Below are positions 1 through 55,939 of a stretch of 64,000 nucleotides of DNA, in pieces. Below the pieces are notes generated by a model. The model was not told the DNA's origin. It saw only the letters and a program-made list of their open reading frames with translations, and did no database searches. A program made the position numbers and the translations under genes. This stretch comes from Patescibacteria group bacterium (GTDB taxonomy: Bacteria; Patescibacteriota; Patescibacteriia; UBA10025; JAHIVO01), in the NCBI GenBank assembly GCA_041650915.1, contig JBAZKE010000003.1, positions 149,226-213,225 of the forward strand. Direction: 5' to 3'. The stretch's first letter is position 1. Every line of letters begins with the position of its first letter.

Positions 1-239
1 CTGACCTCGAGTCCACGGTCATTAGCATCGTGCAGTGGGCACTCGGTTTTCTCGGCCTCATTGCCGTTATTTTCATCCTCTACGGAGGCTTCACCTGGAT
101 GACGGCCGGTGGCAATGAAGATAAAATTTCGACCGCAAAAAAGATTATCACTGCTGCGGTCATTGGTTTGATCGTCATCTTGCTCGCGTGGGCGATCGTA
201 ACCTTCGTCGTTGGGCAGGCAAATGATCTTACGACATAA
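1..239 (+). CDS. TrbC/VirB2-like T4SS pilin family small membrane protein, 5'-truncated by window start (frame is open from nt 3; the ATG at 30 is internal)
   Basis: The reading frame is open from nt 3 (DLESTVISIVQWALGFLGL...). The ~78 visible residues align by eye at roughly two-thirds identity with the C-terminal part of the 119-aa product of 24032..24391 (shared DL.STVI.IVQW.LGFLGL, YGGF, KKIITAAVIGL, LLAWAIVTFV). Two hydrophobic helices; TAA stop at 237-239. Confidence 0.5.
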   Translation, partial: DLESTVISIVQWALGFLGLIAVIFILYGGFTWMTAGGNEDKISTAKKIITAAVIGLIVILLAWAIVTFVVGQANDLTT

Positions 240-19622: not shown

Positions 19623-19666
19623 CAGTTGACAGGAAATACACGCTGGTGTAGTGTATTGAGTTATCT

Positions 19667-24031: not shown

Positions 24032-24391
24032 ATGTCAAAAAAAATTTCCGCCGGTCTATTTGCCGTTATCGGCATGGCACTGCCAGCCGTTAGCTTGGCA
24101 CAAGCAGGCGCCGGCCAATACGGTTCTACTTTCGGGATAGGAACCGCGGATCTGGCTTCAACGGTTATCATGATCGTACAGTGGGTTTTGGGATTCTTAG
24201 GCCTGGTCGCTGTACTCATGATTATCTACGGTGGTTTTATTTTACTGACGGTGGGTGGCGGCAATGAGGAGCGGGCGGCATCATCAAAAAAAATAATCAC
24301 GGCGGCTGTCATAGGGTTGGCCGTTGTTCTACTGGCGTGGGCGATTGTCACGTTTGTGATCGGAACGACGGGTAACGTGGCGACCGGCTGA
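24032..24391 (+). CDS. TrbC/VirB2-like T4SS pilin family protein (signal peptide plus two hydrophobic helices)
   Basis: 119 aa. Signal peptide with AQA cleavage site. The mature part is paralogous to the truncated ORF at 1..239. Starts 30 nt after the ABC-2 permease stop. Confidence 0.5.
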   Translation: MSKKISAGLFAVIGMALPAVSLAQAGAGQYGSTFGIGTADLASTVIMIVQWVLGFLGLVAVLMIIYGGFILLTVGGGNEERAASSKKIITAAVIGLAVVLLAWAIVTFVIGTTGNVATG

Positions 24392-24643
24392 GCGCCCCAA
24401 CGCGGCTATATTCCTCAAAAAGCATCACCGTCTTGGGCTCCGTCTAGGCTAGGAAGCTTTTTCCCATTCAGCACTTCGATGCCCGCAATCTTCCATTGCG
24501 GCTATTGAGAAGGCTGTAATTCCATCAAGAGCAAGCGCCTGCCGCCGGCATTGACATACTGTGCAGGGGGTGTATATTTAACAGATTTTTACCGTGGTAT
24601 ACTCATATCGTGAATTAATATATAAACGTTAGGGAATTGACCT

Positions 24644-25177
24644 ATGGGAGAAGTACCAATACCGGTGGAGGATTTGGAGGAAGCGCAATCTTTTGATGCA
24701 GGCCGTAAATCCATGCCCGATGCTTCAGATGGAGCGGAGGAACCTGACGATGAAGGCGGAGAAGCTGAAGTGCCTGAGGAATTTCCGACAGAAACGGGTG
24801 TGGATAACATGGTTTTTGAGTCGGAGGCAAGCTTGGAAGCTGAAGACATCGCCGAGCATCTTAATGCCGTTTTTAGCCGTGGCCTGCCAAAAGGAGCAGA
24901 AATACTGCCAAACGATATACTCGAGCAGTACGCCATGTTCAGGGCTAATGGCCAACCGGCTCGGGAGTGCCGTGCCACTAGAATTTTCGGTGAAAAGCTG
25001 GGCAAACCCGATGTCGTGATAGAAATCATCAAGGCAGGCCAGAAGCTCGCACTGAAGGAGCGGCGGGCGGAATGGAATGGCGTTGATAGGGAACCGTCAC
25101 CAGAGATACAGAAGATGATCGATAACGGGGAGCTGAATCCCGATGAAGTAACGGAGTACATGGAATCGCTCGTCTGA
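24644..25177 (+). CDS. acidic hypothetical protein
   Basis: 177 aa, very acidic N-terminus (EEPDDEGGEAEVPEE); a TTGACA...TATATT promoter-like element lies upstream around 24553-24580. Confidence 0.4.
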   Translation: MGEVPIPVEDLEEAQSFDAGRKSMPDASDGAEEPDDEGGEAEVPEEFPTETGVDNMVFESEASLEAEDIAEHLNAVFSRGLPKGAEILPNDILEQYAMFRANGQPARECRATRIFGEKLGKPDVVIEIIKAGQKLALKERRAEWNGVDREPSPEIQKMIDNGELNPDEVTEYMESLV

Positions 25178-25197
25178 CCGATAACACATTAATTGCA

Positions 25198-25233
25198 GGA
25201 GCGGCGCTAACCGCGCCGCTCCTATTTTTATTT
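25198..25233 (+). terminator. Rho-independent terminator candidate
   Basis: GGAGCGGCGC-TAACC-GCGCCGCTCC hairpin followed by TATTTTTATTT. Confidence 0.5.
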
Positions 25234-25268
25234 CCGCTAGCTATGCGGTATACTATTAATACGGACAC

Positions 25269-27146: not shown

Positions 27147-27159
27147 GGAATCGAAAAGT

Positions 27160-32529: not shown

Positions 32530-32675
32530 CATCCGGCAATGGAGCTAACATTAACAGTTCAATGTAGATAATATGCAAAGGGCGAGCCGTCATTTAGGGG
32601 GCTCGCCCGTCCGCTATCGGCTTTGCTTTCAAGCGAAGCCGGGCGGGCTGTTTGGATGAGCGATAGAACAGAAGT

Positions 32676-33920: not shown

Positions 33921-33998
33921 TTTTCGTCACATTAGTAAGACAGAAATAAATTGACAGTCCGCGGGGGTGTGGGAATGAAGAGACAATAATTATTATGT

Positions 33999-34119
33999 AC
34001 CTCACCCTGAATTCGTTTCAGGGTCCCAATGTACAAGGTGCTAGCATGAGAGATGCCGAAATGAATTCGGCATGAGGGCATGTCAAAAGACCTCACCCTG
34101 AATTCGTTTCAGGGTCCCA
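33999..34119. repeat. two perfect 30-bp direct repeats (33999..34028 and 34090..34119), each with an internal hairpin CCCTGAA-TTCGT-TTCAGGG
   Basis: ACCTCACCCTGAATTCGTTTCAGGGTCCCA occurs twice, 91 bp apart. The 61-bp spacer holds another hairpin (GCCGAA-ATGAA-TTCGGC) flanked by CATGAG direct repeats. Confidence 0.7.
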
Positions 34120-35198: not shown

Positions 35199-35663
35199 TT
35201 ACCAGCTCGATTCGATTTTAAACGTTTCAGAAAAGCACATCCCCGCCATGCCAGCGTAACACAGGAAAGCGGGAAAGATACGCAGCAGGACGGCAGTAGG
35301 GGGATCGAAGCTGGTCGGTTGCAGGTTGAGGGTCAGCAGCATGGCCAGCCCGAACGCAGCGCACCCGAAATAGAATTCGAGCTCGCGCCATTCGTTAACG
35401 CTTTGCAGCGGCGCCGCTTCCCTGAGCTCATCAATTTTGGAAGAGCGAGCCACGAGCGTCAGAAAAATCAGAAACAGCGCATCAATCATGGTCAGGATAT
35501 TGACCAGCGTGCCGAGGAACCCTCCGTACAGCGTCCTGAGCGAGCTCGCAATGGCGAGCATAAAGCTGATCACCAGGACAACTCGGAGCGCGATAATGCA
35601 GAGTACGACGAATCCGCTCGCTATCCCTTCGTCGTGCTCCTCGTCAACGTACAGGGTACTCAT
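35199..35663 (-). CDS. hypothetical polytopic membrane protein
   Basis: 154 aa with 4 hydrophobic helices. Confidence 0.4.
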   Translation of the reverse strand: MSTLYVDEEHDEGIASGFVVLCIIALRVVLVISFMLAIASSLRTLYGGFLGTLVNILTMIDALFLIFLTLVARSSKIDELREAAPLQSVNEWRELEFYFGCAAFGLAMLLTLNLQPTSFDPPTAVLLRIFPAFLCYAGMAGMCFSETFKIESSW

Positions 35664-36305
35664 TTTGTACTCCCTCCTTTTTGGGCGATAAGGTTATTAA
35701 ATGGCTATTTTCAGGTTACGCTACCACGGGCTGAGGCTCATGTCAATATAAAATTCGGCTCACTCTCGTGGGAAGAGTGAGCCTTTCATGGAGGGTATGC
35801 GATGACAGACGTCAGCGGATACCAAGGGCAAATAACGATGAATAATTTCGGACTCGCCTAGGAAAAGGATTGGCAGGAAGCCTAGGCACAAATGTACAGC
35901 GAAAAAAGTGGATTCCCTTTGTATATTAACTCGTAGGGCACTGGCAGTATAATGCGGTTTCAAGCAGGTGTCAATATAAAAAATCGGTCCGTCTCAGCTG
36001 TAGCGGAGACGGACCTTCGTTCTGGAATAATGTGGTAAATGTGGAAAAACCGAATAGAACGGTTTCTCCTGAACAATTTTTACGTCCAGGATAGGACGCT
36101 GGTCGCGCCTGAGTAAGCTTGCAGAAAGCGTTAGGCGCTGGCAGGTAAGGTGCTATGCATTGGCGTGTACATTCTCGAGGTACGCCGAGAGATACGGTAG
36201 AGCATAGAGTATTGCCGGAACATTGTCAAATAAAAAAGCCCGCGGCGTGGGGTGCACACCGCGAGCGTCTGTGGAGGAACCAGGGAGCGCACGCTCCCGC
36301 GTATC

Positions 36306-36803
36306 CTAGGTTTTCTGCCTGTTGAGCATTGATCCGTTGCGGACGTCGGTCATAAGCTTGACCGGGCCGACGATGTGAATGATGCCGCTGGCATCGTACC
36401 ACACCTCGCGCGTGCCGCCGATCGAGAGCTGTACTTCGCAGTCGATCATGTCGAGCGTGAATCTGAACGTCGGTCTGATGCTGTCCCCTTGTTCCGGGAA
36501 GACGACGATGAGGCCGCCTCCTTCGGCCGCGATCGTATCGTACGTGAACCGCTGGTTGACGAACGCCCACTTGAGCACCGTCTGTACTCTGGCCTCCGCC
36601 AGAGATACTATGTAGCGTTCCCCCTCCTGGAGGATCCACCTATCTTCCTTTTCGGACGCGGTAATGATTGCGCGTCCGTCGATGATCGCTGCTCTCGGTA
36701 TTTCGTACAGCGTGTTATTAACGTCGAGGATTGAGAGCGTATCGCCCTCGATTTCGAGCAGCCGGATCTTAATCCCCGTTTGGCCTGATCGTGCCATCTG
36801 CAA
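36306..36803 (-). CDS. hypothetical protein
   Basis: 165 aa, no recognisable motifs. Followed on the - strand by a GC-rich hairpin plus T-run (about 36225-36260 in + coordinates). Confidence 0.4.
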   Translation of the reverse strand: MQMARSGQTGIKIRLLEIEGDTLSILDVNNTLYEIPRAAIIDGRAIITASEKEDRWILQEGERYIVSLAEARVQTVLKWAFVNQRFTYDTIAAEGGGLIVVFPEQGDSIRPTFRFTLDMIDCEVQLSIGGTREVWYDASGIIHIVGPVKLMTDVRNGSMLNRQKT

Positions 36804-37102
36804 CCTCCTGTTCTAGCGGACATTTTGTCCCGTTTTTTATGTCAACTGTACTATGTATTCCCAATTAGTTCACCTTATGGCTCAATGAAGGATATGTCAA
36901 GAGTCCAGAGCCTCCGACTTTCTGTAGCCAGATAGCGGCAAAGAGTTTTGGGATTTTTCAATGAGCGGGGCGCTAACGTGCCAATTGCATGCCATGCCGC
37001 CGAAGAAATCCTCCAAACCCCACCGTTGAAAGATGCCGATGCTTCTAACAATTTTAATTGAAAAGTGATAGTATATAAGTAATAAATGAAAGGATTCATT
37101 TT

Positions 37103-37414
37103 ATGAACGGACAGCAACCGCCGCAAGGCCAGCAGCAGCTCAACATCAAGATCGACGATGCGACGCTCAAGGGCGTGTACACGAATGCGATGGGCGTGTC
37201 TCACTCCAAGGAGGAGTTCGTGCTCGACTTCATGAATCTGTACCCGTGGCAACGGGCAGGGGTAGTCAGCGCGCGGGTCATCACGAGCCCCGGGCACGTG
37301 AAGCGCATCTTCAAGGCGCTCGAGGAGAACATTAAAAAGTACGAAGGCAAGTTCGGGAAGATCGAGGTCGCGAAAGCCCCCTCAGCCGAAGATATCGGGT
37401 TCAAGACCGCGTAA
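37103..37414 (+). CDS. DUF3467-family small protein
   Basis: 103 aa. Pattern QLNIKIDDATLKGVYTNAMGVSHSKEEFVLDFMNLYP...ARVITSPGHVKRIFKALEENIKKYEGKFGKI matches my recollection of DUF3467 proteins. Confidence 0.5.
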   Translation: MNGQQPPQGQQQLNIKIDDATLKGVYTNAMGVSHSKEEFVLDFMNLYPWQRAGVVSARVITSPGHVKRIFKALEENIKKYEGKFGKIEVAKAPSAEDIGFKTA

Positions 37415-37471
37415 AAAACGAGCCTCCCGAGGAAGAGGGGAGGCTCACAACCGAGGTCGATGTGATGATTA

Positions 37472-37834
37472 TCAGTACTGGCGGAAGTGGTTCCTGAATT
37501 CTTTTTCACCGATGGAAACGGCGGTGCCGTCTTCGGTAAATACCCGGTAACCCGTACCTTTATCGCCAGCGACGTAGTACATTCCTTTTTGCCGAAAGTG
37601 GGCAGCACCCCTTGTCAAATCTCGCGTACACTCGTACGGCACGACGACCAGAAAGTGCTCGTCGAATTGACTAACGGGGACAGATTCCACTCCTCCGCCT
37701 GCTTTATCGATACTGATGATGCCACGGCACTGCCCAAAACGGATTTGATACGCCTTGCCTTCGATAAAGACCGGATTTCCATCGGCCGGGAAGGATTTCA
37801 TACATCGAACGTTGCAAGGAACTGTTATGTTCAT
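37472..37834 (-). CDS. hypothetical protein
   Basis: 120 aa open frame on the - strand; no motif recognised. Confidence 0.3.
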   Translation of the reverse strand: MNITVPCNVRCMKSFPADGNPVFIEGKAYQIRFGQCRGIISIDKAGGGVESVPVSQFDEHFLVVVPYECTRDLTRGAAHFRQKGMYYVAGDKGTGYRVFTEDGTAVSIGEKEFRNHFRQY

Positions 37835-37927
37835 TTAACCTCCAAATGTTTGTCATCTCATTTCAGCAATAGGTTAGTGTAATGGTAACGAGCAGTGCTG
37901 TCAAGCTTTGCGTTCACATAATACTAT

Positions 37928-45604: not shown

Positions 45605-46579
45605 CTAACCGGTTTTATCTTCCGATGCGCGTATGTCGAGCCCGATTTCCTTCCACTCTGACATCACGGCCTCAATGTCTCTCGGCTCTACGACCTGGCG
45701 GTTTTGGCGGATCGATGGCTTGCCTTCGATGCTCGCGAGCTTCACCTTGGCAGCAGCCTCGTCCATGAGGTCAATCGCCTTGTCGGGAAAGACGCGGTCC
45801 CTGATAAACCGGTCCGAAAGTTCGACTGCTTTTTCGAGCGCCGCGTCGGTAATTTTCAGCTGGTGGTGGTCTTCGTAGCGCTGCCTGATGCCTTTCAGTA
45901 TTTGTATGGTCATCTCCCTGCTCGGCTCCTCAATCATGATCGGCTGAAAGCGGCGCTCGAGGGTGAGGTCACGCTCGACATACTTCTTATAGTCTTCCAT
46001 GGTTGTCGCCCCGATAACCTGCAGCTCTCCCCGCGCGAGGGCAGGTTTGAGGATATCCGCGGCATCGATCGCGCCGGTTGCCTGTCCTGCTTCAGCGAGC
46101 GTATGCATCTCATCGATGAAAAGGATTACGGAGCGCTGGGCGGCAATAATTTCATCAACAAGTGACTTGAGGCGCCTTTCGAACTCGCCGCGGTACTTGG
46201 TGCCGGCAACGAGCCCTGACAGATCGAGCGCAAGCACGCGCTTGTTCACGATGGTCGACGTGACGTTTTTTGCGGCGATGGCGTTCGCGAGGCCTTCGAC
46301 AATCGCCGTTTTGCCGACGCCCGACTGGCCGATCAGCACCGGATTGTTCTTGGTCCGGCGCGAGAGAATCTGTATGACCCGTTCTATCTCATGCTCGCGG
46401 CCGATGACGGGATCGAGCTTCTGTTCGCGCGCGAGCGCGGTCAAATCTTTTGAGTAGAGCTTGAGCACCTGGAAGCTGCCGCGGTTTTTTACGTTCTCGC
46501 GGTACAGCCAAAAAATCACCGCCCCGAGCACGATGAGCAAGAGGAGCAATGACCAAGATGATGTCGGCAGTTCTGCCAT
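45605..46579 (-). CDS. membrane-anchored AAA+ ATPase consisting only of a Clp/Hsp100 D1-type module
   Basis: 324 aa. N-terminal TM helix ([18 protein letters not shown]). Clp D1 Walker A GQSGVGKT, Walker [11 protein letters not shown], sensor-1 IGATT and RRFQPI. No N-domain, M-domain or D2 module. Confidence 0.6.
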
Positions 46580-46739: not shown

Positions 46740-47375
46740 CTACGACTGGTAGTCGAATACGAGAACGTATTTCGCGATGTAGAACATCGCATCTTTCTCG
46801 ACAAACGGCATACCGCATTTGTCGGATACGACTGCATCGTAGGGCTGGCGGATAACCAGTTCACACGACATCGAGGACGGAACCGCGACTTCGAAAAATC
46901 GCTTACGATCCACGTTTCTCAAGTCTTGAAAAACGCGGACCCCGTTCTGATTTCCGCAGTACGATATTTGCGGAAATCCAGGATTGCCGTTTGCAACCTT
47001 CGGGAAGCTGATCTCGAAGGCCGCGTGCAATCCGGTCACCCAGATCGTGTCCATGTTAACCGTGTGTTTGATATTTTTGTATTGAAGCACGCGGTCTTTG
47101 CTTTTTTCCGGGAGATTTATGGTGTAGATCTTGCCATCCATCTCCATGCACTCCTCGAAGGGGTAGTACAGCTGGGAGGAGTTCGTTGAACCCCACCGCC
47201 AGTGGCGCGTAATGAGCAGATGATCATCCGCGCCAGGTGTACACGCCCGTTTGAAAAAAGCCAGGTCTCCGCCAACCTCACCGAGGTGAATGCTGGTGCA
47301 GCCCGATAGCAGCGATAAGCTGACTAAGCTGACAATGAAAAGAGCCAACAGAACCGACAGTTTCGTCTTCATCAC
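46740..47375 (-). CDS. hypothetical lipoprotein
   Basis: Signal peptide with lipobox LLSGC; 211 aa. Confidence 0.45.
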   Translation of the reverse strand: MMKTKLSVLLALFIVSLVSLSLLSGCTSIHLGEVGGDLAFFKRACTPGADDHLLITRHWRWGSTNSSQLYYPFEECMEMDGKIYTINLPEKSKDRVLQYKNIKHTVNMDTIWVTGLHAAFEISFPKVANGNPGFPQISYCGNQNGVRVFQDLRNVDRKRFFEVAVPSSMSCELVIRQPYDAVVSDKCGMPFVEKDAMFYIAKYVLVFDYQS

Positions 47376-47541
47376 TCTCTCCTCGAGTATATTGATTTCT
47401 ACTATTTTCCATTTACGAACAAGCCTACCATACTACCACCAGTATTATGTTTTGTCAAGGGTAGTTGTGCACATACCGAAAACCTTGATTTTTCTCGGAA
47501 AATGTGATATAATTGAAAAAGTTACAATTGCATTTTTTACT

Positions 47542-48123
47542 ATGGCGCAAGGTCCGGACACCAATATTAAAAAAGGAGCTGAACAGGAGCCGGGGGGGAT
47601 TGAAGATATTTTTGATTTGGCAAAGGAGGCAAAGCCGCCCGTCCCAGAAACAACCCCTGAGCAGCCCACAGCGAGGGAGGTTACCCGGGAAACGCCGGTT
47701 GAAGCGGCGCGTGAAGCAAGGCCGGAAGCGATTCCGGAGCAGGAGCCGGCAGCAGAATCAGAGGATGCCCGCCTGAAGTATGCTCCGCCTCCGGCAGCGG
47801 CTGCAACACCGGCAGCGGCGCCTGCCGCCAAGAGCGAAGAGCTGCGGAAGATCGAGACCGTGCTGTCAGAGCACCTCGACGAGCTTTTTCTGCAGATGAC
47901 GCCGGAGCAGCAAATTGCATTCCAGCAAAAGGGGGAAGAGACGGCGTCGAAGATCGAGAAGCTCATGCAGAGCGCGAAGGTGAAGGTGAGAGAGATCCTT
48001 TCGCTGATCAGGGACTGGCTGAAAATTATCCCCGGCGTTAATAAGTTTTTCATCGAGCAGGAAGCAAAAATCAAGACCGACCGCCTGCTTGCGTTCCACG
48101 AACAGAAACACAGAGAAAAATAA
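47542..48123 (+). CDS. hypothetical protein with Pro/Ala/Glu-rich low-complexity N-half
   Basis: Start placed at MAQGPD (47542), 25-30 nt downstream of an extended -10 TGTGATATAAT. The conserved-looking C-terminal ~90 aa is helical. Directly upstream of the VirD4-like gene. Confidence 0.4.
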   Translation: MAQGPDTNIKKGAEQEPGGIEDIFDLAKEAKPPVPETTPEQPTAREVTRETPVEAAREARPEAIPEQEPAAESEDARLKYAPPPAAAATPAAAPAAKSEELRKIETVLSEHLDELFLQMTPEQQIAFQQKGEETASKIEKLMQSAKVKVREILSLIRDWLKIIPGVNKFFIEQEAKIKTDRLLAFHEQKHREK

Positions 48124-48147
48124 TTTTTACATTACCCTCTCGTTTTC

Positions 48148-50688
48148 ATGGAAACACCAAGCGTTGACATCGTTGGCCCGCTCAAGGATATGTTCATGAA
48201 CCTGCTCGAGAACCCGTCCTTCCCGGTCATACTCGTCGGTATTTCGGTGCTCGTTGTAATTTTCGCGGGCATTTTTATTTTTGGAAAGTTTTTGCGCAGC
48301 GAGAAATCGCTGCCGCCCGCGCTCCGCAAGACCGTGCTGCTCGTGACCGTGCCGAAAGAGTCCGAGATCAAGGATGAGGAGGGGCAGCGGCAGCGGACGG
48401 TGGCTGAGATGCTCGCCGAAGCTGAGGCGTGGTTTACGGCGATCGCAGGCATGCGCGCACAGCGCGGGCTCGGCGTGGTGGTCACGGGGCGGTACGACCA
48501 CTTTTCACTGGAAATCGTCGCGCACGACGGGCTCATCTCGTTCTACATCGTCTGCCCAAACTACCTGCGTCCGTACATGGAGCAGCACATCCATGCCCAG
48601 TATCCCCGTGCGCAGATCGAAGAAGTGCCCGCGTACAATATTTTCAAGCCGACGAGCACGGTGCTCGCAGCCGGACTAAAGTCGAAGAAACCGTACATTT
48701 TTCCGATCCGAACGTTCAAGCAGCTTGACGTCGATCCGCTCAACGCGCTCACAAACATACTGTCAAAGCTCGCTGACGACGAAGCTGCAGCGATCCAGTA
48801 CGTCGTCCGCTCGGCGAAAGCGGAGTGGCATACCTGGGGTGCGCGGGTCGCGCAGGAGATGCACCGCGGCAAGACGCTCAGGGACGCGATGGGCGGCCAC
48901 GGGCTCGGCGGATTCCTCATGGAGCTCGTGCGGACGTTTTTTCCGAAAAAGGACAAGCCGATCGACGAGAACCGGATACTGTCGCCGCGCGAGCAGGAGG
49001 TTGCCAAAAGCCTCGAGGAGAAGACGTCGAAGCCGGGCATGGATGTCAACGTACGCGTGGTCGTTTCCGCACAGACCGGTGAACGGGCAAAAGCTTACCT
49101 CGATAATATCATTGATTCTTTTGCCCAGTATACGCTGCACGAGTATGGGAACGGATTCGTCCGCCGGGACCCGTTTAAGAAAGATGAGTTCATCAATGAT
49201 TTCATATACCGGAGGCTTGTGAAGCGCGGCAAGCTCATCTTGAACACCGAGGAGCTGACGAGCATTTTTCACTTTCCGCTGCCGACGACCGAGACGCCGA
49301 ATATCAGATGGCTGCAGTCCCGCAAGGCGTCACCGCCAACCAACATTCCTGCAGAGGGGCTCGTGCTCGGAAGGAGCATCTACCGCGGCGAGGAGACGGT
49401 CATCAGGATCAAGCGGCAAGACCGCCAGCGGCACGTGTACACGATCGGCAAATCCGGCGTCGGCAAGTCGGTGCTGCTCTCAAACATGATCGTTCAGGAT
49501 ATCTATAACGGGGAGGGGGTTGCGGTTGTCGATCCGCACGGCGACCTCATTGACGACGTGTTGCAGCACGTGCCGAAGGAGCGGGCGGAAGATATCGTGT
49601 ACTTCAATCCGTCAGACCAGGAGTTCCCGGTCGGGCTCAATATGCTCGAGGCGAAGACGCCCGAGGAAAAGGATTTCGCGGTGCAGGAAATGATCGCGAT
49701 CTTCTATAAGCTGTTTCCGCCGGAAATGATCGGCCCGATGTTCGAACACAACATGCGCAATGTCATGCTCACCCTCATGGAGGATACGGAGTACCCAGGG
49801 ACGATCGCCGAGATACCGCGGATGTTCACCGATCCGGCATTCCAGAAGTACAAGCTCTCGAAGGTGAAGGACCCGATCATCCGTTCGTTCTGGGAAAAGG
49901 AGATGGCGAAGACGTCCGACTTCCACAAGTCGGAGATGCTCGGGTACCTCATCTCAAAGGTAGGGCGGTTCGTCGAGAATAGCATGATGCGCAACATTAT
50001 CGGGCAGGCGCGGTCGGGATTCGATTTCGATGATATCATGAACAACAGGAAAATCCTTCTCGTCAACCTCGCGAAGGGCACGACCGGTGAGGTCAACAGC
50101 AATCTGCTCGGCCTCATTATCGTTTCGAAACTGCAGATGGCCGCCATGAAGCGCGTTACCGTTCCGGAGGAGCAGCGCAACGATTTCTACCTGTACATTG
50201 ACGAGTTCCAGAATTTCGTGACCGACAGCATCGCGACGATCCTTTCTGAGGCGCGGAAGTACCGCCTCAACTTGACGATGGCGCACCAGTACATCGGGCA
50301 GCTCGTGCGGGATAACAACGACACGAAGATACGCGATGCGGTGTTCGGCAACGCCGGCACGCTTATCGCATTCCGCGTGGGCGTCGAGGATGCCGAGACG
50401 CTCGCTCAGGAGTTCGAGCCGGTCTTCAATGAGTACGATGTCATCAACGTGGATATGTATACCGCCAATGTCAAGCTCCTGATCGACAATACGTCATCAA
50501 AGCCTTTCAACATGCAGACGTACCCGCCGCAGCCGGGAAATCCTGAAATGGCGCGTTATCTTGTCGAGCTCTCACGCCGGAAGTACGGCCGGGCACGCCA
50601 GGACGTGGAAGCGGAGATTCTCAAGAAGTCAAAGCTTGGCGAACCGGCGGCAGCACAGAGCACGCCCGTTGGGGAGCGGAGCAGGTAG
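48148..50688 (+). CDS. VirD4/TraG/TraD-like type IV coupling-protein-family P-loop ATPase
   Basis: 846 aa. N-terminal TM helix. Walker A YTIGKSGVGKSVLL. C-terminal block LYIDEFQNFVTDSIATILSEARKYRLNLTMAHQYIGQLV...FGNAGTLIAFRV follows the TraG-D_C pattern (DEF...RKyG...Q...QL...GN..T.I.FR). Confidence 0.55.
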   Translation: METPSVDIVGPLKDMFMNLLENPSFPVILVGISVLVVIFAGIFIFGKFLRSEKSLPPALRKTVLLVTVPKESEIKDEEGQRQRTVAEMLAEAEAWFTAIAGMRAQRGLGVVVTGRYDHFSLEIVAHDGLISFYIVCPNYLRPYMEQHIHAQYPRAQIEEVPAYNIFKPTSTVLAAGLKSKKPYIFPIRTFKQLDVDPLNALTNILSKLADDEAAAIQYVVRSAKAEWHTWGARVAQEMHRGKTLRDAMGGHGLGGFLMELVRTFFPKKDKPIDENRILSPREQEVAKSLEEKTSKPGMDVNVRVVVSAQTGERAKAYLDNIIDSFAQYTLHEYGNGFVRRDPFKKDEFINDFIYRRLVKRGKLILNTEELTSIFHFPLPTTETPNIRWLQSRKASPPTNIPAEGLVLGRSIYRGEETVIRIKRQDRQRHVYTIGKSGVGKSVLLSNMIVQDIYNGEGVAVVDPHGDLIDDVLQHVPKERAEDIVYFNPSDQEFPVGLNMLEAKTPEEKDFAVQEMIAIFYKLFPPEMIGPMFEHNMRNVMLTLMEDTEYPGTIAEIPRMFTDPAFQKYKLSKVKDPIIRSFWEKEMAKTSDFHKSEMLGYLISKVGRFVENSMMRNIIGQARSGFDFDDIMNNRKILLVNLAKGTTGEVNSNLLGLIIVSKLQMAAMKRVTVPEEQRNDFYLYIDEFQNFVTDSIATILSEARKYRLNLTMAHQYIGQLVRDNNDTKIRDAVFGNAGTLIAFRVGVEDAETLAQEFEPVFNEYDVINVDMYTANVKLLIDNTSSKPFNMQTYPPQPGNPEMARYLVELSRRKYGRARQDVEAEILKKSKLGEPAAAQSTPVGERSR

Positions 50689-50874
50689 AGTTTTGAATGA
50701 AATAGCTGTATACTACCATTATGCAGAGTGTTCAAATCGATGTAGCAACAAAAGTCAGCCTTGCGGAAAAAGCCGCGGTCGCGCTCATGATGTACGGCGC
50801 GGTTGCCCTCGGCGTAGGCATCGTGGCAGGGATGGGCGCGTAGTACTGGCCGCTAATACGTATCGCGATATCTT

Positions 50875-53800
50875 ATGGCAAGAATCGGTACCGTATTATT
50901 CTGTGCACTATCGTGCGTAAGCTCGATTTTTTTTATCGCGCCAGAGGCGCGTGCGGCAACCAGCGTGGGTGCGTGCGGAGACCTTACCGCGGCGAATGAA
51001 ACATATGTGCTTTCGCAGAATGTATCGAGCGATAAGACCTGCTTTACTATACGGAATAACGGCATAACGCTGGACCTCAACGGCCATACGGTCACGTATG
51101 GAAACTACTCGGCGGTTACGGTTCCGAATGCGGATTTTGAAACCGGCAGCGGCACGGCACCAGACAGCTGGAGCCTGTCAAACGCACCCGACGCCGAGCG
51201 GTTCGCCGGTACGTACGTACAGCCCGTGACGCTCTATTCGGGCGATTACGGCATGCGCTTCGTTAACCCGTCGAGCGCGCAGTACATCCGTTCGAATTCG
51301 CAAATCACGTTCAGCGCGAATACAACTTACGCGTTGACTGCGATGGTATACAACCGCGTCAGCGATGATATCACCATGTACGTGGAGCTGGAAGGCACGG
51401 ACTACCGCGCTGAGCAGGAGAGCCGTACGTGGCGCGGCTTTCAGCTCATTACGCATATTTTTCGTCCGACCTCAGACGTGACGGCCTACGTGCGTGCAGG
51501 CATCGAGGGTACGGGTCTTGCGGGCGACGGGACGGTATACATTGATGACATCAAGCTGCAGTCAGCGTATTATCACGGGGTAGCGCTGCCGACATACTGG
51601 GAAGAAAGCCGCGTGGAGTACAATTACTATCCTGATGTCAACTTGAATCTTTCGGGAACTTCGCCGCAAAATATTACGATCAAGAACGGCACGATTACCC
51701 AGGGATCCGGCAACGGCTACTTCAGCAACGACATCCAGGTGTCGGGCGGTTCCGGCATCACCATTGAGGATATCACCGCGACTGTGCACGGCATGCAGTC
51801 GTCGAATATCTATGGGTACTGGGGCAATGCCTATACGGTGCACGGCTGTACCCTGACGAGCAACGTGCAGACAATCGTGAGCCGCGATAACAACCACGGC
51901 AGCATGCTCATTATCGCCCGGAGCACCGGGGGCAATGTCATTTACGACAACGCATTTTACAACGGCCCCCAGGATGCGATCTACATCAGCGATTCGAATG
52001 ACGCTTCTGAAGGCGGCTCTGAAATATACGGCAATACGTTCCAGCTGAAGACAAGGTACACGAATAGCTTTGCTGTCGAGAACGGCGGGCGGAATGCGGA
52101 CGTGCACGATAATATCATTTTAAATACGGGAGACTATTGGGGGCGGGGCTTCCATATCCTTAATAGCGGCGAGTACTACAATAACTACATAGAATTTGAA
52201 GACCAGCCGGTGGTCCAGGAATACGACGGGTGCATACCGGCGTCTTTCGGCGTGCAGCTCGAAGGTGAAGCGGATGGCGCGAGTGATATTCATTTGTATA
52301 ATAATACGATTATCGCGCATACGGACGCAGGCGGCTGTTCGGCCGCAGCGCTTCGGTTTTCCGCCGCGGGCACCGGAAACGTGATCGACGGCAACACCCT
52401 GACCGCGGTCGCGGGAACGGGCGCCACGGAGCGCGTCTATGCGCTCAGCTTTACGGGCGGCGACCAGTCCGGATCCCCGATAACCAACAATACGATCACG
52501 AGCAATTCAAGCTGGATTTATTTTTATTACTGGGGGGATGAAGCTGCGCAGAACGTTTACGCCAAGGATAACACGTTCGCGCTCGGCGATAATCTGATCG
52601 ATTTCATACCGCTGTACGGCGCGAATACGGCCGGCAACACGTTTGTGAACAATGCATACGGGAGTGCCAATGCTCAGTCCCAGTTTGAGTCCGCTGATAT
52701 ACAGATGTACGGCAGCCCGGATGAAAATTCAAGCTTCTCAGTGCAGTGGGCGTATGACCCAGTCGTGCGGGATGCCGGTAATAATCCGATTTCAGGCGCG
52801 GCAGTCACTATAACGCGCAATGGCGCAGCGGTCTTCATCGGCACGACGGGGGCAGACGGTACGCTCGCGAATCCACCCGGGTTGACTGAGTTTGTTAATG
52901 CGGGCGGCAGCGTAACAACGTACGGATCCTACACGGTATCGATCGGCAAGAGCGGGTACTCAAGCTACTTGGATACCGTTGATCCGGCTGCTCCGATGAG
53001 CGTGGTCATAGCGCTGACTCCAACCGGCGATTCCGAACCAGCCACCTGCCTTGAGAGCTGGTCTTGCACTGAGTGGGCGGCGTGCAGCGGCGGCACAAGC
53101 ACCCGCACTTGTACGGATCTCAACAGTTGCGGCACAACAAATGACAAGCCCGCGGAAACGGCCGCGTGCCAGATGTCGCCGGGCTGCATTGAAGACTGGC
53201 TGTGTACGGCATGGAGCCCGTGCGCGGGCGGCGAGCAGATACGAGCGTGCGTTGACCGGAGCAGCTGCGGCACGCATGAGGATAAGCCCGCAGAAACATT
53301 CGATTGTTCCGGCGGGGCGGTACCATCAGACGACGATATCGCGCCTAATACACAGATTATTTCCGGTCCCGCCGGTACGATCAGTAGCCGGACTGCCGGT
53401 TTCCGCTGGATCGGCGTCGATGACCAGACGGATGCATCGGATTTGGTTTTTTCTTACCGGCTCGATTCCAATGACTGGTCAGCGTGGAGCACAGCAACGT
53501 CAGTAGACCTGCGGAAAATCAGGAACGGGGAGCATACGTTTTCGGTGCGCGCACGCGATTTGGCCGGTAACGTAGACGCTTCGCCTGCATCGGTATCGTT
53601 TTCCGTCGAGAAGCTCGCGTACATTGCGGCGGCGCCCGGTGAGGGCGGCGGTCCGCAGGTCAGGGTTTTTGACCACCAGGGAAACCTCGTCACCCAGTTT
53701 TTCGCGTTTGAGCAGGAGTTCCGTGGGGGCGTTGCCATCGCTTTTGCTGATCTTGGCGGTGACGGGATCGAGGAGATCATCGTGGGTGCCGGCTACGGCC

Positions 53801-54561
53801 GTGCGCCCGAGGTGAGGATATTCCGGCAGGATGGGACGTTCATCAATTCTTTTATGGCGTACGCGGATACGTTCCGGGGCGGCGTCTCTGTCGGCGCGGG
53901 TGATTTTGACGCTGACGGCATTGAGGAGGCGGTCACCGCGCCCCTGTCCGGAGGCGGACCGAACGTCCGGATTTTCGGCTACCGCAACGGGTCTTTCGTT
54001 CCGATCGTAGAAAATTTTATGGCATACCCGGACACGTTTAGGGGAGGATTGTCTTTGGCCGTGTCAGATGTAGAGGGAGATGGCATCGATGAAATTATCA
54101 CCGTTCCACTCACCGCGGGCGGCCCGCACGTGCGCATGTTCGGCATTCGGGATGGCAGGTTCCGGCCGGTTACGCTCGGGTACATGGCGTACGCGGATAC
54201 GTTCCGGGGCGGCGTTAGCCTGGCGAGCGGCAACTTCAACGAGGATGCCCCTGAGGAGGTTATAACCGGAGTCGCATCCGGCGGCGGCCCGCACGTGCGC
54301 ATGTTTGGTAGAACCAGATACGGGATTATCGGGCTCGTGCATCCGGGATTTTTTGCATTCATGCCGCAGTTCCGGGGCGGCGTCAGCCTGGCGGCGGCTG
54401 ATTTTGATTCCGACGGGATCGACGAAATCGTCTCTGCGGTGCGGAGCGGCAGCGATCCGCTCGTGCGCGTGCACCGGGCGGACGGCAGTTCCATCGTTTC
54501 AGAGTTTTACGCTTTTCCCCGGACATTCCGCCGCGGAATACGCATCGCCACCGGCGGATAG
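50875..54561 (+). CDS. giant secreted protein: right-handed beta-helix with jelly-roll insertion, two Cys-rich ~40-aa modules, Fn3/Ig-like domain and a C-terminal FG-GAP/VCBS-type repeat beta-propeller
   Basis: 1228 aa. Signal peptide (ALSCVSSIFFIAPEARA). NN(T/G)I repeats of parallel beta-helix. Duplicated module CLESWSCTEWAACSGGTSTRTCTDLNSCGTTNDKPAETAAC / CIEDWLCTAWSPCAGGEQIRACVDRSSCGTHEDKPAETFDC. Seven repeats of the form GDGIDEII...GGGPHVRMFG. Confidence 0.6.
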   Translation: MARIGTVLFCALSCVSSIFFIAPEARAATSVGACGDLTAANETYVLSQNVSSDKTCFTIRNNGITLDLNGHTVTYGNYSAVTVPNADFETGSGTAPDSWSLSNAPDAERFAGTYVQPVTLYSGDYGMRFVNPSSAQYIRSNSQITFSANTTYALTAMVYNRVSDDITMYVELEGTDYRAEQESRTWRGFQLITHIFRPTSDVTAYVRAGIEGTGLAGDGTVYIDDIKLQSAYYHGVALPTYWEESRVEYNYYPDVNLNLSGTSPQNITIKNGTITQGSGNGYFSNDIQVSGGSGITIEDITATVHGMQSSNIYGYWGNAYTVHGCTLTSNVQTIVSRDNNHGSMLIIARSTGGNVIYDNAFYNGPQDAIYISDSNDASEGGSEIYGNTFQLKTRYTNSFAVENGGRNADVHDNIILNTGDYWGRGFHILNSGEYYNNYIEFEDQPVVQEYDGCIPASFGVQLEGEADGASDIHLYNNTIIAHTDAGGCSAAALRFSAAGTGNVIDGNTLTAVAGTGATERVYALSFTGGDQSGSPITNNTITSNSSWIYFYYWGDEAAQNVYAKDNTFALGDNLIDFIPLYGANTAGNTFVNNAYGSANAQSQFESADIQMYGSPDENSSFSVQWAYDPVVRDAGNNPISGAAVTITRNGAAVFIGTTGADGTLANPPGLTEFVNAGGSVTTYGSYTVSIGKSGYSSYLDTVDPAAPMSVVIALTPTGDSEPATCLESWSCTEWAACSGGTSTRTCTDLNSCGTTNDKPAETAACQMSPGCIEDWLCTAWSPCAGGEQIRACVDRSSCGTHEDKPAETFDCSGGAVPSDDDIAPNTQIISGPAGTISSRTAGFRWIGVDDQTDASDLVFSYRLDSNDWSAWSTATSVDLRKIRNGEHTFSVRARDLAGNVDASPASVSFSVEKLAYIAAAPGEGGGPQVRVFDHQGNLVTQFFAFEQEFRGGVAIAFADLGGDGIEEIIVGAGYGRAPEVRIFRQDGTFINSFMAYADTFRGGVSVGAGDFDADGIEEAVTAPLSGGGPNVRIFGYRNGSFVPIVENFMAYPDTFRGGLSLAVSDVEGDGIDEIITVPLTAGGPHVRMFGIRDGRFRPVTLGYMAYADTFRGGVSLASGNFNEDAPEEVITGVASGGGPHVRMFGRTRYGIIGLVHPGFFAFMPQFRGGVSLAAADFDSDGIDEIVSAVRSGSDPLVRVHRADGSSIVSEFYAFPRTFRRGIRIATGG

Positions 54562-54593: not shown

Positions 54594-55133
54594 ATGCTAG
54601 ACATGGGTATATACGTATTTTTGCTACTTGCTATTCTGCTCGTATTCGGTTCGGCGGCGTATGCAGGCTTGCGCGCGGCTCCGTGGCTGCCGGTATTCAA
54701 GCGTGATATCGCCCGTATTGTGGCGCTCGCGGGGGTCCGCGAGGGTGAGGTAGCGTACGATCTCGGCTCAGGTGACGGGAGGGTGCTGATCGCGCTTGCT
54801 AATAACACGAAAGCCCGCCTCCTCGTCGGATATGAGATTTCTTTTTTACTGTACGTCTGGTCAGTGATCCGCGTGCGGTTTCTCGGCTTTCGGAAGCGCA
54901 TCGAGGTTCGGTACGGAGATTTCTTGACGCGTGATCTGAGCCAGGCAGATGTCATTTTTTGTTTCCTCACCCCGATGGCGATGAAGAAGCTCGATCCGAA
55001 ATTCAGGGGCGAGTTGAGGCCGGGCACGAGAATCATTTCATACAGTTTTTCTCTGCCGGGATGGGAGCCCGAGGCCGTTGATCGCGTCGGGGAGAAATCG
55101 ATTCCGATTTTCAAGTACCGTATTGACGGCTGA
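54594..55133 (+). CDS. membrane-anchored class I SAM-dependent methyltransferase-like protein
   Basis: 179 aa. N-terminal TM helix and motif I VAYDLGSGDGRVLIALA. Confidence 0.45.
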   Translation: MLDMGIYVFLLLAILLVFGSAAYAGLRAAPWLPVFKRDIARIVALAGVREGEVAYDLGSGDGRVLIALANNTKARLLVGYEISFLLYVWSVIRVRFLGFRKRIEVRYGDFLTRDLSQADVIFCFLTPMAMKKLDPKFRGELRPGTRIISYSFSLPGWEPEAVDRVGEKSIPIFKYRIDG

Positions 55134-55282: not shown

Positions 55283-55939
55283 ATGCCAAATCAAAATAAA
55301 CTAGACCAGATCCGGAAACTTCTCGACACCGCACACGTCTCACTCGAGAGCGCGCGGCAGCTTTTGGTTCAGGTCGTCGGCAAGAATGATACTGAGGCGC
55401 TTGAGGTCGCGAGCAGGGCGAAAGAGGTTGGCAGTGAATCGGTACAAGGAACGGAAAAAATCATCGAAGGAATCTTCGATGGCCAACACATGGTCGGCCC
55501 GGACGGCAAGCAGTACAGCGTACCGGCCAATTACGCTTCAAAGTCAAAGCTTGTCGTCGGCGATACGCTCAAGCTCACGATTAAGGACGACGGGTCATTT
55601 CTCTACAAGCAGATTGGCCCCATTGAGCGCGGACGGCTCGTCGGACTGCTTACCCGCGATGAGACGACGGATGAATACCGCGTTGTAGTCGGTGACCGTT
55701 CGTATAAAGTACTGCTCGCGAGTATTACGTACTTCCGCGGCGAAGCGGGCGATGAGGTTGTCATCCTCGTCCCGAAGGACCGTGAAACTGAGTGGGCGGC
55801 CGTTGAGAATATCATCAAAGCGGCAGGAGGTGCCGGTGAGCAGCCTGCGGCAGGGGGAGTGCCCACGGTGCAGATTGCCGCGGACCAGGCAACGGAACAG
55901 CCGGCTGGGCAGGTTGAGGATATCGAGGAGCTGAGCTAG
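55283..55939 (+). CDS. hypothetical protein
   Basis: 218 aa; no motif recognised. Confidence 0.4.
   Translation: MPNQNKLDQIRKLLDTAHVSLESARQLLVQVVGKNDTEALEVASRAKEVGSESVQGTEKIIEGIFDGQHMVGPDGKQYSVPANYASKSKLVVGDTLKLTIKDDGSFLYKQIGPIERGRLVGLLTRDETTDEYRVVVGDRSYKVLLASITYFRGEAGDEVVILVPKDRETEWAAVENIIKAAGGAGEQPAAGGVPTVQIAADQATEQPAGQVEDIEELS

Follow-up and report, generated by a model that had tools for sequence, protein, structure and literature searches.

Homologues of the type IV coupling protein (T4CP) are near-universal in Patescibacteria. In the parts of their survey considered here, Quinonero-Coronel et al. (2025; PMC12102498) detected and counted them by HMM in 2,918 of 3,035 genomes (96%), as chromosomal, relaxase-less genes of VirD4 type that usually lie far from virB4 (only 148 are near it) and co-occur with dispersed VirB2-like pilins; VirB4 was found in fewer genomes (2,417; 80%), relaxases were nearly absent and pilins often dispersed, and exaptation of the T4CP homologues could, according to the authors, not be ruled out. 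A canonical VirB4 is reported to be kept alongside the T4CP homologue in most Patescibacteria. Southlakia epibionticum's type IV secretion system (T4SS) cluster has no recognisable coupling protein; in one Tn-seq study, the t4cp homologue of this organism was reportedly non-essential and its T4SS genes were essential.

Outside the phylum, the nearest relatives of the ATPase described below in a recognisable T4SS context are WP_331738717.1 of Embleya sp. NBC_00896 and WP_004451780.1 of C. botulinum pCLD, plasmid proteins of monoderms that share its full two-domain architecture (44–45 bits with an HMM of its N-terminal domain). The 812-aa Embleya homologue (profile alignment over residues 88–812, 684 columns, 100% probability) is encoded on an actinobacterial plasmid, flanked by a VirB4-like ATPase and a Replic_Relax protein and next to genes for PrgI, a TrbL-like (VirB6-like) protein and an NlpC/P60 hydrolase, and serves as coupling protein in this conjugation cluster of Gram-positive type; the C. 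botulinum gene overlaps a VirB2 pilin gene. Literature searches returned no experimental work on either protein. Among solved structures the best sequence-level match is TrwB of R388 (PDB 1E9R/1GKI), whose gene lies on a plasmid and adjoins those for TrwC (relaxase) and TrwA (accessory protein).

The ATPase gene in the window (the whole stretch of 64,000 nucleotides that was analysed) is one of the homologues described in PMC12102498. The kind is already published; what is new is its domain composition, its unusually slow evolution and the presence of the same two-domain protein in the Embleya cluster. The sections of the paper considered here say nothing of the DUF8128 N-terminal domain with its VirB4-like fold, of a conserved partner gene, of synteny with housekeeping genes or of how unusually slowly the all-alpha insert evolves. 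Whereas the plasmid homologues lie in conjugation-type clusters or beside a pilin gene, the ATPase of the window lies in a housekeeping block, where positions 47542–50688 form a two-gene operon of the core chromosome that is vertically inherited in Patescibacteria (here the Kerfeld-/Uhr-/Falkowbacteria group).

Family and domain make-up of the ATPase

The three open reading frames of the locus were found where a sequence-only reading had placed them (Table 1). That reading had taken the 846-aa product for a coupling ATPase of VirD4/TraG type rather than an FtsK/HerA protein, citing an N-terminal TM helix, a GKSGVGKS P-loop and a C-terminal DEF…GNAGTLIAFR block, all of which are present (the last as RKYRLNLTMAHQYIGQL...GNAGTLIAFR). 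The ATPase exceeded the cut-offs of three Pfam T4CP models, TrwB_AAD_bind (35.8 bits, cut-off 20.5), T4SS-DNA_transf (34.1 bits, cut-off 20.1) and TraG-D_C, a search which that reading had proposed (25.7 bits, cut-off 22), and fell below those of DUF87 (20.5 bits, cut-off 23.2) and FtsK_SpoIIIE (16.2 bits, cut-off 24). TrwB was its sole significant PDB sequence match, at an identity of only ~16–17%; hhalign gave TrwB a probability of 95% with the region of the all-alpha domain (AAD) covered, against 8.6% for the VirB4 protein TrwK of R388 (PDB 7O42, 8RTD), for which no sequence similarity to the ATPase was found beyond the P-loop. An HMM of the motor scored 34 bits with TrwB and 223 bits with the Embleya T4CP, compared with −0.3 bits for TrwK and 14 bits for a Gram-positive VirB4-like protein; of the VirB4 models, TIGR00929 stayed below its threshold (23 bits, cut-off 643) and PF03135 did not match. 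The VirD4-like assignment therefore holds and, judged from its sequence, the ATPase is a P-loop protein that belongs with the type IV coupling proteins (VirD4/TrwB family) and has intact catalytic motifs and an all-alpha insert.

Table 1. Features of the ATPase locus and the two pilin genes, in window coordinates.
Feature	Position	Strand	Description or basis
T4SS pilin gene 1, 3' part (VirB2-like, PF18895)	1..239	+	full gene 117 aa, start 115 nt before window
T4SS pilin gene 2 (PF18895)	24032..24391	+	119 aa; signal peptide and two hydrophobic helices
Lipoprotein-like gene, divergent from partner gene	46740..47375	-	211 aa (…LLSGC…); ORF, sequence
Promoter-like site, minus strand	47458-47430	-	consensus scan
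Promoter-like site ahead of partner gene	47485..47513	+	TTGATT, 17 nt, TG-TATAAT; 10/12 consensus matches, extended -10
Small partner gene	47542..48123	+	193 aa; inner ATG of ORF 47290-48123
T4CP-family ATPase gene	48148..50688	+	846 aa, membrane-anchored; ORF, profile matches, model
Single N-terminal TM helix, residues ~24-50	48217..48297	+	hydropathy ~19-52; predicted model helix 24-50
DUF8128 (PF26449) alpha/beta domain, residues ~56-404	48313..49359	+	predicted VirB4-N-terminal-domain-like fold
VirD4-type motor (NBD), residues ~405-800	49360..50547	+	
Walker A GKSGVGKS, residues 434-441	49447-49470	+	sequence
AAD-like all-alpha insert between Walker A and B, residues ~505-632	49660..50043	+	predicted model helices 505-632; aligns to TrwB AAD region
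Walker B LYIDE	50191-50205	+	sequence; YIDEF = residues 682-686
AHQY sensor motif	~50281-50292	+	sequence
Giant surface-protein gene	50875..54561	+	1228 aa; ORF, Pfam

The ATPase shares the motor fold and motifs of TrwB, and its all-alpha insert sits where a T4CP is expected to carry one; 58 homologues all retain the Walker A G and K, D685/E686 and Q714. It differs from TrwB at the N-terminus: in TrwB two TM helices lead straight into the NBD, without an N-terminal domain of ~350 amino acids, whereas the ATPase has a single helix, where VirD4-type proteins typically have two or more, followed by such a domain. Read from the sequence, the flanks of this helix are acidic on the N-terminal and basic on the C-terminal side, a pattern that predicts a cytoplasmic location for the remainder of the protein. 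The ~350 residues between helix and motor form a separate cytoplasmic DUF8128 domain, the predicted fold of which resembles the N-terminal domain (NTD) of VirB4; this likeness is one of predicted structures only, profile comparison having detected no sequence similarity between the two. Foldseek with the ATPase model ranked full-length TrwK first. The separate domain is absent from the description given by the sequence-only reading.

Evolution of the ATPase is slower than that of DnaX or CysRS: its median identity is 58%, theirs 47% and 50%, respectively. Its most conserved part is the all-alpha insert (median identity to the window sequence 84%; motor 75%, N-terminal domain 49%). Tandem paralogues with intact motifs are present in one related locus (L090).

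The partner gene and the chromosomal setting

The real conserved companion of the ATPase is the Pro/Ala/Glu-rich protein encoded upstream of it, a pairing which the earlier reading had missed. Its low-complexity composition was as that reading described it (22% Ala, 17% Pro and 16% Glu over the first 95 residues) but is confined to a variable N-terminal region of ~95 amino acids; the C-terminal ~95 amino acids make up a domain that is strongly conserved and looks helical (…KGEETA…WLKIIPGVNKFFIEQEAKIKTDR…). The sequence has neither a TM segment nor a signal peptide. The partner is a cytoplasmic protein, its head disordered and acidic/proline-rich, its tail helical and conserved. Of 467 homologues found, the best 120 carried no Pfam domain and were named only as 'hypothetical protein'; none was seen beside the Embleya or C. 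botulinum pCLD proteins.

In 72 of 76 loci an HMM of the partner C-terminal domain found a match on the same strand, no farther than 1.5 kb upstream of the ATPase. The gap between the two genes is 24 nt here and 2–25 nt in most relatives, and the ATG at 47542 lies 29 nt past a promoter-like site, a consensus match only, which includes the extended -10 noted earlier. It is from this pairing, the short gaps and the promoter-like site that the two genes are assigned to one operon. At the position of the divergent lipoprotein-like gene, related loci have a minus-strand gene of 160–290 amino acids, the sequences of which are not alignable.

ATPase and partner lie within a conserved housekeeping block, CysRS … DnaX, and the recurrent neighbours in related loci (80 sampled for synteny) are housekeeping genes; in a distant relative (L089) the ATPase adjoins gyrB/gyrA. 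Vertical inheritance under constraint follows from this conserved synteny, the recurrent neighbours and the identity medians. As the sequence-only reading had stated, no VirB4, VirB6, relaxase or integrase domain was found in any sizeable ORF of the window; nor was there any in the 10 kb upstream of the window, and neither these genes nor any T4SS channel gene recurred within 10 kb of the ATPase in the 80 related loci. Since the whole window and the neighbourhoods of the 80 relatives consist of housekeeping genes, the locus is not an integrative and conjugative element (ICE). Both VirB2/TrbC-like pilin paralogues proposed earlier passed the PF18895 T4SS_pilin model (48.7 and 44.7 bits, cut-off 26.6) and are 60.5% identical to each other. 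A dispersed T4SS, one of two options raised by the sequence-only reading, matches the published picture for Patescibacteria in the parts of PMC12102498 considered here.

Roles considered for the operon

Taken as a whole, the locus is probably best explained, by a modest balance of the evidence, as an operon for the coupling ATPase of a domesticated T4SS and its partner, with an unrelated giant protein downstream. The ATPase would form a hexameric ring at the membrane and dock through its VirB4-like N-terminal domain on a relaxase-less, monoderm-type T4SS, the parts of which (VirB3/PrgI, VirB4, VirB6 and VirB2-like pilins) would be encoded at other genomic sites; the two dispersed pilin genes of the window may be parts of the same scattered system. 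It would recruit one conserved substrate and energise its transfer, and the very conserved all-alpha domain could be the binding site for this substrate or for the partner. In favour of this reading, along with the family assignment, the pairing in an operon, the signs of vertical inheritance and the published counts, the closest two-domain homologues outside the phylum are found in a conjugation cluster (Embleya) or at a pilin gene (pCLD). We infer coupling to a T4SS from family membership, since neither the window nor the 10 kb upstream of it has a T4SS channel gene near the ATPase, and none recurs in the 80 loci. Counted against it are the greater prevalence of T4CP homologues than of VirB4, the non-essential homologue and coupling protein-less T4SS cluster of S. 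epibionticum, the single TM helix and a VirB4-NTD likeness drawn from predicted structures only.

CagZ is an adaptor or regulator of Cagβ. If bound to the ATPase, the partner might, as a guess by analogy, act likewise. The Cagβ–CagZ pair (H. pylori; PDB 8DOL) is an analogy only, the partner having no detectable similarity to CagZ, as is the TraG–TraJ pair, in which TraJ has TM helices whereas the partner has none.

A tentative alternative, clearly the less probable, is an exapted, T4SS-independent translocase, in which ATPase and partner now do a core membrane job (DNA segregation, uptake, repair or another universal substrate). Evolution slower than that of DnaX and CysRS, the high identity of the substrate-facing all-alpha insert, the fixed synteny at dnaX, the gyrB/gyrA neighbourhood in L089, the tandem paralogues of L090, and the abundance of these homologues relative to VirB4, from which they are usually remote, would all suit such a role, and exaptation is allowed by the authors of PMC12102498 in the part considered here. 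However, the dnaX neighbourhood is positional evidence only and the closest relatives outside the phylum keep to conjugation clusters or a pilin gene; with one TM helix per subunit the ATPase would hardly make a channel alone, so that a partner channel would still be needed; and the reportedly non-essential S. epibionticum homologue, if it is a DUF8128 protein, fits poorly with an indispensable function. We think it very improbable that the ATPase is a VirB4-type assembly paralogue (NTD + CTD) mislabelled by HMMs as a coupling protein. Its two-domain layout and length are as in VirB4, and the Foldseek ranking points the same way, but the hhalign, motor HMM and VirB4 model scores all go against this, as does the separate VirB4-like ATPase that adjoins the homologue in the Embleya cluster. 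VirB4 also lacks the VirD4-type AAD signature and a TM helix of its own, and is anchored by VirB3.

That the locus is part of an ordinary ICE or of a MADS-like or HerA-like phage-defence system is barely credible. PADLOC likened the ATPase to mad8 (49.6 bits) and a downstream methyltransferase-like gene to mad2 (43.4 bits); MADS, however, is an eight-gene operon with a methylase of ~490 amino acids, and the similarity here is confined to generic P-loop and SAM-fold segments, with none of the other genes present. Relaxase, integrase and other ICE genes are lacking, no tRNA genes adjoin the ATPase locus, GC content along it is uniform, and core-genome synteny across a whole class runs contrary to the behaviour of mobile or defence islands; these readings are refuted for practical purposes. 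It is also very unlikely that the ATPase serves the giant adhesin-like protein in a three-gene attachment module, as the sequence-only reading had grouped them. The three genes are adjacent on one strand, and a very large secreted protein occupies the same slot in a few other lineages, but synteny, the comparison which that reading itself had proposed, largely refutes the grouping: only the partner travels with the ATPase. The giant gene follows after a gap of 186 nt, is missing from a relative with 89% identity (L083) and has its place taken in L084 by another protein, of 1318 aa; giants fill the slot in only ~6 of 83 loci, and those of L084, L003, L011, L012 and L021 are unrelated to the giant of the window and, L011 and L021 excepted, do not cluster with each other. 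On clustering of related loci the giant is a singleton, with partial matches only, to non-adjacent proteins in L056 and L048. Its N-terminus resembles a Sec-type signal peptide, and the ATPase is therefore not needed for its export. Of the secreted beta-helix/Cys-module/FG-GAP protein described earlier, the signal peptide, two six-Cys modules (Cys 725–765 and 771–811) and four FG-GAP_3 repeats (Pfam) stood, accompanied by Ig-like regions, while the beta-helix found no Pfam or PDB-sequence support. The giant protein is an unrelated, lineage-specific insert in a variable slot, outside the conserved module.

Architecture and family of the ATPase

The ORFs, the P-loop and the C-terminal block of the ATPase were found where a reading of the sequence alone (hereafter the sequence-only reading) had placed them; the partner gene starts at an ATG inside an ORF that itself begins at 47290. 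The ATPase has a single N-terminal hydrophobic helix by both hydropathy and the AF2 model, a Walker A motif (GKSGVGKS, residues 434–441), a Walker B motif with DE at its end (residues 682–686) and a RKYRLNLTMAHQYIGQL…GNAGTLIAFR block. Its catalytic residues were invariant among the 58 homologues compared, and the charge distribution around the transmembrane (TM) helix suggests that the bulk of the protein is cytoplasmic.

The proposal that this protein is related to type IV coupling proteins (T4CPs) and not to FtsK/HerA agreed with Pfam at gathering cut-offs. Three T4CP models passed, namely TrwB_AAD_bind (PF10412; 35.8 bits, cut-off 20.5), T4SS-DNA_transf (PF02534; 34.1 bits, cut-off 20.1) and TraG-D_C (PF12696; 25.7 bits, cut-off 22), whereas DUF87/HerA (PF01935; 20.5 bits, cut-off 23.2) and FtsK_SpoIIIE (PF01580; 16.2 bits, cut-off 24) failed; structural likeness to FtsK/HerA was no more than expected at superfamily level. 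NCBIfam TraD models gave partial matches far under their equivalog cut-offs. The sole significant PDB sequence match was TrwB, the VirD4 protein of R388, to which the family profile aligned in hhalign with 95.3% probability over residues 422–721, including the region of the all-alpha domain.

A VirB4 paralogue would be expected to resemble TrwK, the VirB4 protein of R388; this was contradicted by an hhalign probability of 8.6%, confined to the P-loop, and by a score of −0.3 bits for TrwK with a motor HMM built from the ATPase family. VirB4 models gave the ATPase 23 bits where the cut-off is 643 (TIGR00929) or did not match it at all (PF03135, CagE_TrbE_VirB). The motor HMM scored 223 bits for the 812-aa Embleya T4CP, 66 bits for an 800-aa protein of C. 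botulinum pCLD, 34 bits for TrwB and 14 bits for a 643-aa VirB4-like protein of Embleya. An HMM of the N-terminal domain matched the Embleya T4CP (44.5 bits) and the pCLD protein (44.9 bits), with no significant match to TrwB and none to TrwK or the Embleya VirB4-like protein. Judged by sequence, the motor is of the VirD4 type.

The full-length AF2 model was confident (pLDDT 85, pTM 0.75) and comprised a TM helix (residues 24–50), an alpha/beta domain (~56–404) and a RecA-like motor (~405–800), with an all-helical insert (~505–632) between Walker A and Walker B that hhalign aligned to the all-alpha domain region of TrwB. Of the features by which T4CPs are recognized, the protein has the nucleotide-binding domain (NBD) motifs, matches to T4CP HMMs and an all-alpha domain within the NBD. 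None of the five architectural subfamilies in the literature describes it exactly: VirD4-type members have at least two TM helices leading straight into the NBD (PMC7434980), whereas here one TM helix is followed by the 350-aa DUF8128.

DUF8128 (PF26449), the ATPase's N-terminal domain according to Pfam, is present in 1,925 representative clusters, N-terminal in every case; a literature search for it found zero papers. Predicted by itself, the domain was again confident (pLDDT 88.6, pTM 0.84). As motor-only structures were missing from the list of its structural matches, its putative counterpart is the VirB4 N-terminal domain; Foldseek with the full ATPase model had earlier returned full-length TrwK chains on top, aligned over their whole length. 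At the sequence level nothing linked the two by phmmer against PDB sequences, by hhalign against TrwK or by profile–profile comparison with a 60-sequence VirB4 alignment, so the predicted likeness between DUF8128 and the VirB4 N-terminal domain is a statement about fold, drawn from a modelled structure.

Coordinates of features in the window and in fetched loci with ATPase homologues (L handles)
Sequence	Position	Strand	Feature
Window	1..239		Pilin 1
Window	17664-20470		Pair of neighbouring Peptidase_C39_2 proteins; the first, of 652 aa, has two Big_5 Ig-like domains as well
Window	24032..24391		Pilin 2
Window	24032-28209		Pilin 2, directly after an ABC-2 transporter pair, then a 625-aa single-TM protein and a 363-aa PsbP_2-domain protein
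Window	32000-34000		AT-rich island, GC 0.41 versus ~0.53 elsewhere
Window	32676-33920		414-aa Schlafen/AlbA_2 protein within the AT-rich island, between dnaK and an acyltransferase gene
Window	35200-37900		~2.7 kb in which both strands have nothing but short, overlapping ORFs
Window	45605-46579	-	324-aa protein, N-terminal TM helix and a Clp/Hsp100 D1-like AAA+ module (AAA + AAA_lid_9) alone
Window	47542-48123	+	Partner, 193 aa
Window	48148-50688	+	ATPase, 846 aa
Window	50875-54561	+	Giant protein, 1228 aa, in the post-ATPase slot
Window	54594-55133		179-aa TM-anchored SAM-methyltransferase-like protein
Window	55283-55939		218-aa protein
L003	12545-17038		Post-ATPase slot
L053	9491-12568		1025-aa ORF containing partner and ATPase
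L084	12577-16533		Post-ATPase slot
L088	11474-14274		C. botulinum pCLD, TrbC/VirB2-family pilin gene overlapping the start of the 800-aa homologue
L090	7273-12985		102-aa acidic ORF, then two tandem DUF8128 ATPases of 806 and 994 aa

A two-gene operon followed by a variable slot

Related loci (80, with 10-kb flanks) were fetched and their ORFs called and clustered. An HMM of the C-terminal domain of the partner placed this gene immediately upstream of the ATPase gene, in the same orientation, in 72 of the 76 loci with enough upstream sequence, mostly across a gap of 2–25 nt. In front of the partner gene lies a promoter-like site that has an extended −10. The partner varies in its N-terminal half, which is Pro/Ala/Glu-rich, whereas conservation is strong over its last ~95 residues. 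Searches of Pfam, NCBIfam and PADLOC gave nothing meaningful, and of 467 homologues the best 120, those listed, had no Pfam domain in the precomputed annotation, and any name given was 'hypothetical protein'. In L053, one of the fetched loci, partner and ATPase share one ORF; this may be a sequencing artefact, since in a true in-frame fusion the partner would come to lie at the outer (wrong) side of the TM helix.

The surrounding block is itself conserved and runs CysRS, the membrane-anchored Clp-D1-like AAA protein, (CorA), a variable lipoprotein-like gene, partner, ATPase, the variable slot, the small methyltransferase-like gene, the 218-aa protein and DnaX. Because the partner is kept, the giant protein is not and the block is one of housekeeping genes, we conclude that partner and ATPase form an operon of two genes that is a fixed part of the core chromosome. 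Within this block the 324-aa AAA+ protein is the most conserved neighbourhood gene (21 related loci, median identity 71%). The 218-aa protein, which has no family match, is kept in 46 loci between the ATPase gene and dnaX, and the 179-aa protein in 28; in some loci (L040, L067 and L079) both remain with the ATPase although dnaX lies elsewhere. A C39_2 protein (cluster 22) is also met again downstream of dnaX in some of the related loci.

The giant protein begins with a signal-peptide-like segment and contains two six-cysteine modules as well as four FG-GAP_3 repeats; the beta-helix once ascribed to it had no support from Pfam or PDB sequences. The sequence-only reading had joined it to the ATPase and the partner as an adhesin-like third member of a module, which synteny speaks against. 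Its gene was a singleton in the clustering, and such matches as it had were partial and to non-adjacent proteins. The closest relative, whose ATPase is 89% identical, has the 179-aa methyltransferase-like gene directly after the ATPase gene, in the 77% relative a different protein of 1318 aa occupies the slot, and other large ORFs do so in four further loci. What had been observed was real and mostly accurate; the interpretation was half right, and the attractive grouping of the ATPase with a giant adhesin was wrong. In several lineages, L011, L012 and L021 among them, the slot holds large secreted proteins of 887–1497 aa, most of which have no relationship to each other, clustering being limited to those of L011 and L021. 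As the slot is empty in other lineages, it looks like a place where genes for giant surface proteins insert repeatedly.

Median identity, taken across the same 32 genome pairs, was 58% for the whole ATPase, 47% for DnaX and 50% for CysRS. By region it was 20% for the TM part, 49% for the N-terminal domain, 75% for the motor and 84% for the all-alpha insert. The part of canonical T4CPs that varies and faces the substrate is the all-alpha domain (PMC7434980). That this domain is so extremely conserved in the ATPase speaks for one conserved ligand, perhaps the partner or a universal substrate.

Genomic setting and relatives on plasmids

The absence of relaxase, VirB4, VirB6 and integrase genes from the window, noted at the outset, was borne out, as the remaining sizeable ORFs encode housekeeping functions (P-type ATPase, AsnRS/AspRS, ScpA/B, TIM, aldolase, GAPDH, an ABC-2 transporter, HrcA-GrpE-DnaK-DnaJ, CysRS, DnaX, TruB and IMPDH, with two tRNAs). 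Both VirB2/TrbC-like pilin paralogues also stood up: they passed T4SS_pilin (PF18895) at 48.7 and 44.7 bits (cut-off 26.6), have a signal peptide and two hydrophobic helices, with the hydrophobic segments seen in hydropathy plots, and are 60.5% identical to each other. The region read was the 64-kb window with 10 kb upstream, of a 273-kb Patescibacteria MAG contig. As these 10 kb encode SecY, Adk, RecR, YbaB, DnaB and similar housekeeping proteins, VirB4 or VirB6 genes are not hidden beside pilin 1; VirB6-like proteins were also rejected for the ORFs of 625 aa and 177 aa beyond pilin 2, the former having one TM segment and no family matches.

Recurrent neighbours over all loci were CorA, DnaJ/K, Dus, IMPDH, RF-1/PrmC, TruB and L27, together with a few genes of type IV pili. 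Neither T4SS components nor relaxases recurred within the 10-kb flanks of the 80 loci, and no relaxase or mating-pair-formation genes accompanied the ATPase in the window or the 10 kb upstream. GC content is even across the ATPase locus. Further off, the AT-rich island could be an insert gained by horizontal transfer or one of a defence type, and the 2.7-kb stretch beyond it had no Rfam match at the gathering threshold.

This setting is the published one. A survey of 3,035 Patescibacteria genomes (PMC12102498) reports VirD4-type T4CP homologues in 2,918 of them (5,713 copies), only 148 near virB4, together with VirB4 in 2,417 genomes, only 109 relaxases and VirB2-like pilins that are frequently dispersed; the essential T4SS cluster of Southlakia has no recognisable coupling or relaxase proteins (Wang et al. 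2023). A dispersed T4SS without relaxase, one of two options in the sequence-only reading, corresponds to this picture, and the ATPase gene, as a further member of a published class, is not the discovery of a new system.

By tblastn, plasmids carried relatives of the motor at 32–34% identity, and 35 records matched at least 80% of the whole ATPase. The 812-aa Embleya homologue aligned with the family profile over residues 88–812 (100% probability, E 3.6e-51) and is encoded on a linear plasmid in a Gram-positive-type conjugation cluster, in the order TrbL-like, PrgI, VirB4-like ATPase, homologue, Replic_Relax and NlpC/P60. The pCLD homologue is annotated as hypothetical, carries DUF8128 and motor domains, and has its start overlapped by a TrbC/VirB2 pilin gene; PLSDB types pCLD as non-mobilizable. 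Given these two contexts, the combination of DUF8128 with a VirD4 motor is a coupling-protein subfamily of monoderm T4SSs and not an invention of the CPR. The plasmid homologues are encoded with relaxase and/or mating-pair-formation genes.

Working model and rival explanations

Patescibacteria rely on other cells, and to our knowledge no T4SS but theirs is known to be essential to its owner's growth; the coupling protein is the T4SS component that chooses the substrate. Beyond the family, architecture, operon, synteny and conservation established here, we propose that the ATPase forms a membrane-anchored hexameric motor, that it would dock through its VirB4-like N-terminal domain on an inner-membrane complex of the VirB3/VirB4/VirB6 type encoded elsewhere, and that it may pick its substrate through the conserved all-alpha domain. 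By analogy with CagZ–Cagβ or TraJ–TraG, the partner might act as an adaptor or regulator.

Direct tests contradicted a VirB4 paralogue, an adhesin module, an integrative conjugative element (ICE) or conjugative plasmid, and a defence system. For the mobile elements, relaxase, VirB4, VirB6, integrase and compositional or tRNA-linked island boundaries were all missing in the window. For defence (MADS, HerA, DptH), the only matches were partial ones to mad8 and mad2, and MADS is an eight-gene mad1–8 operon with a full-length methylase. The main rival is an exapted translocase working independently of any T4SS. The ATPase gene is commoner than VirB4, lies next to T4SS genes in none of the loci examined in this lineage, evolves like a core gene and is possibly not needed where the T4SS is; the authors of the survey likewise allow for exaptation of t4cp, as the Southlakia homologue was not essential (PMC12102498). 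We nevertheless consider exaptation somewhat unlikely and prefer a coupling protein that serves a dispersed T4SS. A bolder reading, to which we give a lower chance, is that DUF8128 ATPases are a third deep lineage of T4SS motors (VirB4-type N-terminal domain with VirD4-type motor), perhaps even a living intermediate of the VirB4/VirD4 split, turned in Patescibacteria into a machine of the core genome that has a small adaptor to itself and handles one universal substrate apart from conjugation, for example host-derived nucleic acid in import or export, or a conserved effector at the epibiont–host interface.

Relative to the literature found, the additions are the predicted VirB4-like N-terminal domain, the dedicated and conserved companion of the ATPase, the conservation pattern and the direct link to Gram-positive conjugative T4CPs. 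The near-universal T4CP homologue of the phylum has a partner of its own, a substrate-facing domain more conserved than DnaX and a predicted VirB4-like domain that would serve in docking; these traits would also add a data point on VirB4/VirD4 divergence. Partner and all-alpha domain are concrete handles for finding the substrate, which makes that question more tractable.

In distant family members too, a small acidic, proline-rich ORF precedes the ATPase in housekeeping surroundings, and in L089 the pair adjoins gyrB/gyrA. The small ORFs of L089 and L090 resemble the window partner in composition only, with undetectable homology. The tandem ATPases of L090 are 33% identical and have intact Walker A and B motifs in both copies; such paralogues could account for the literature figure of about two T4CP copies per genome, and they hint at hetero-oligomers.
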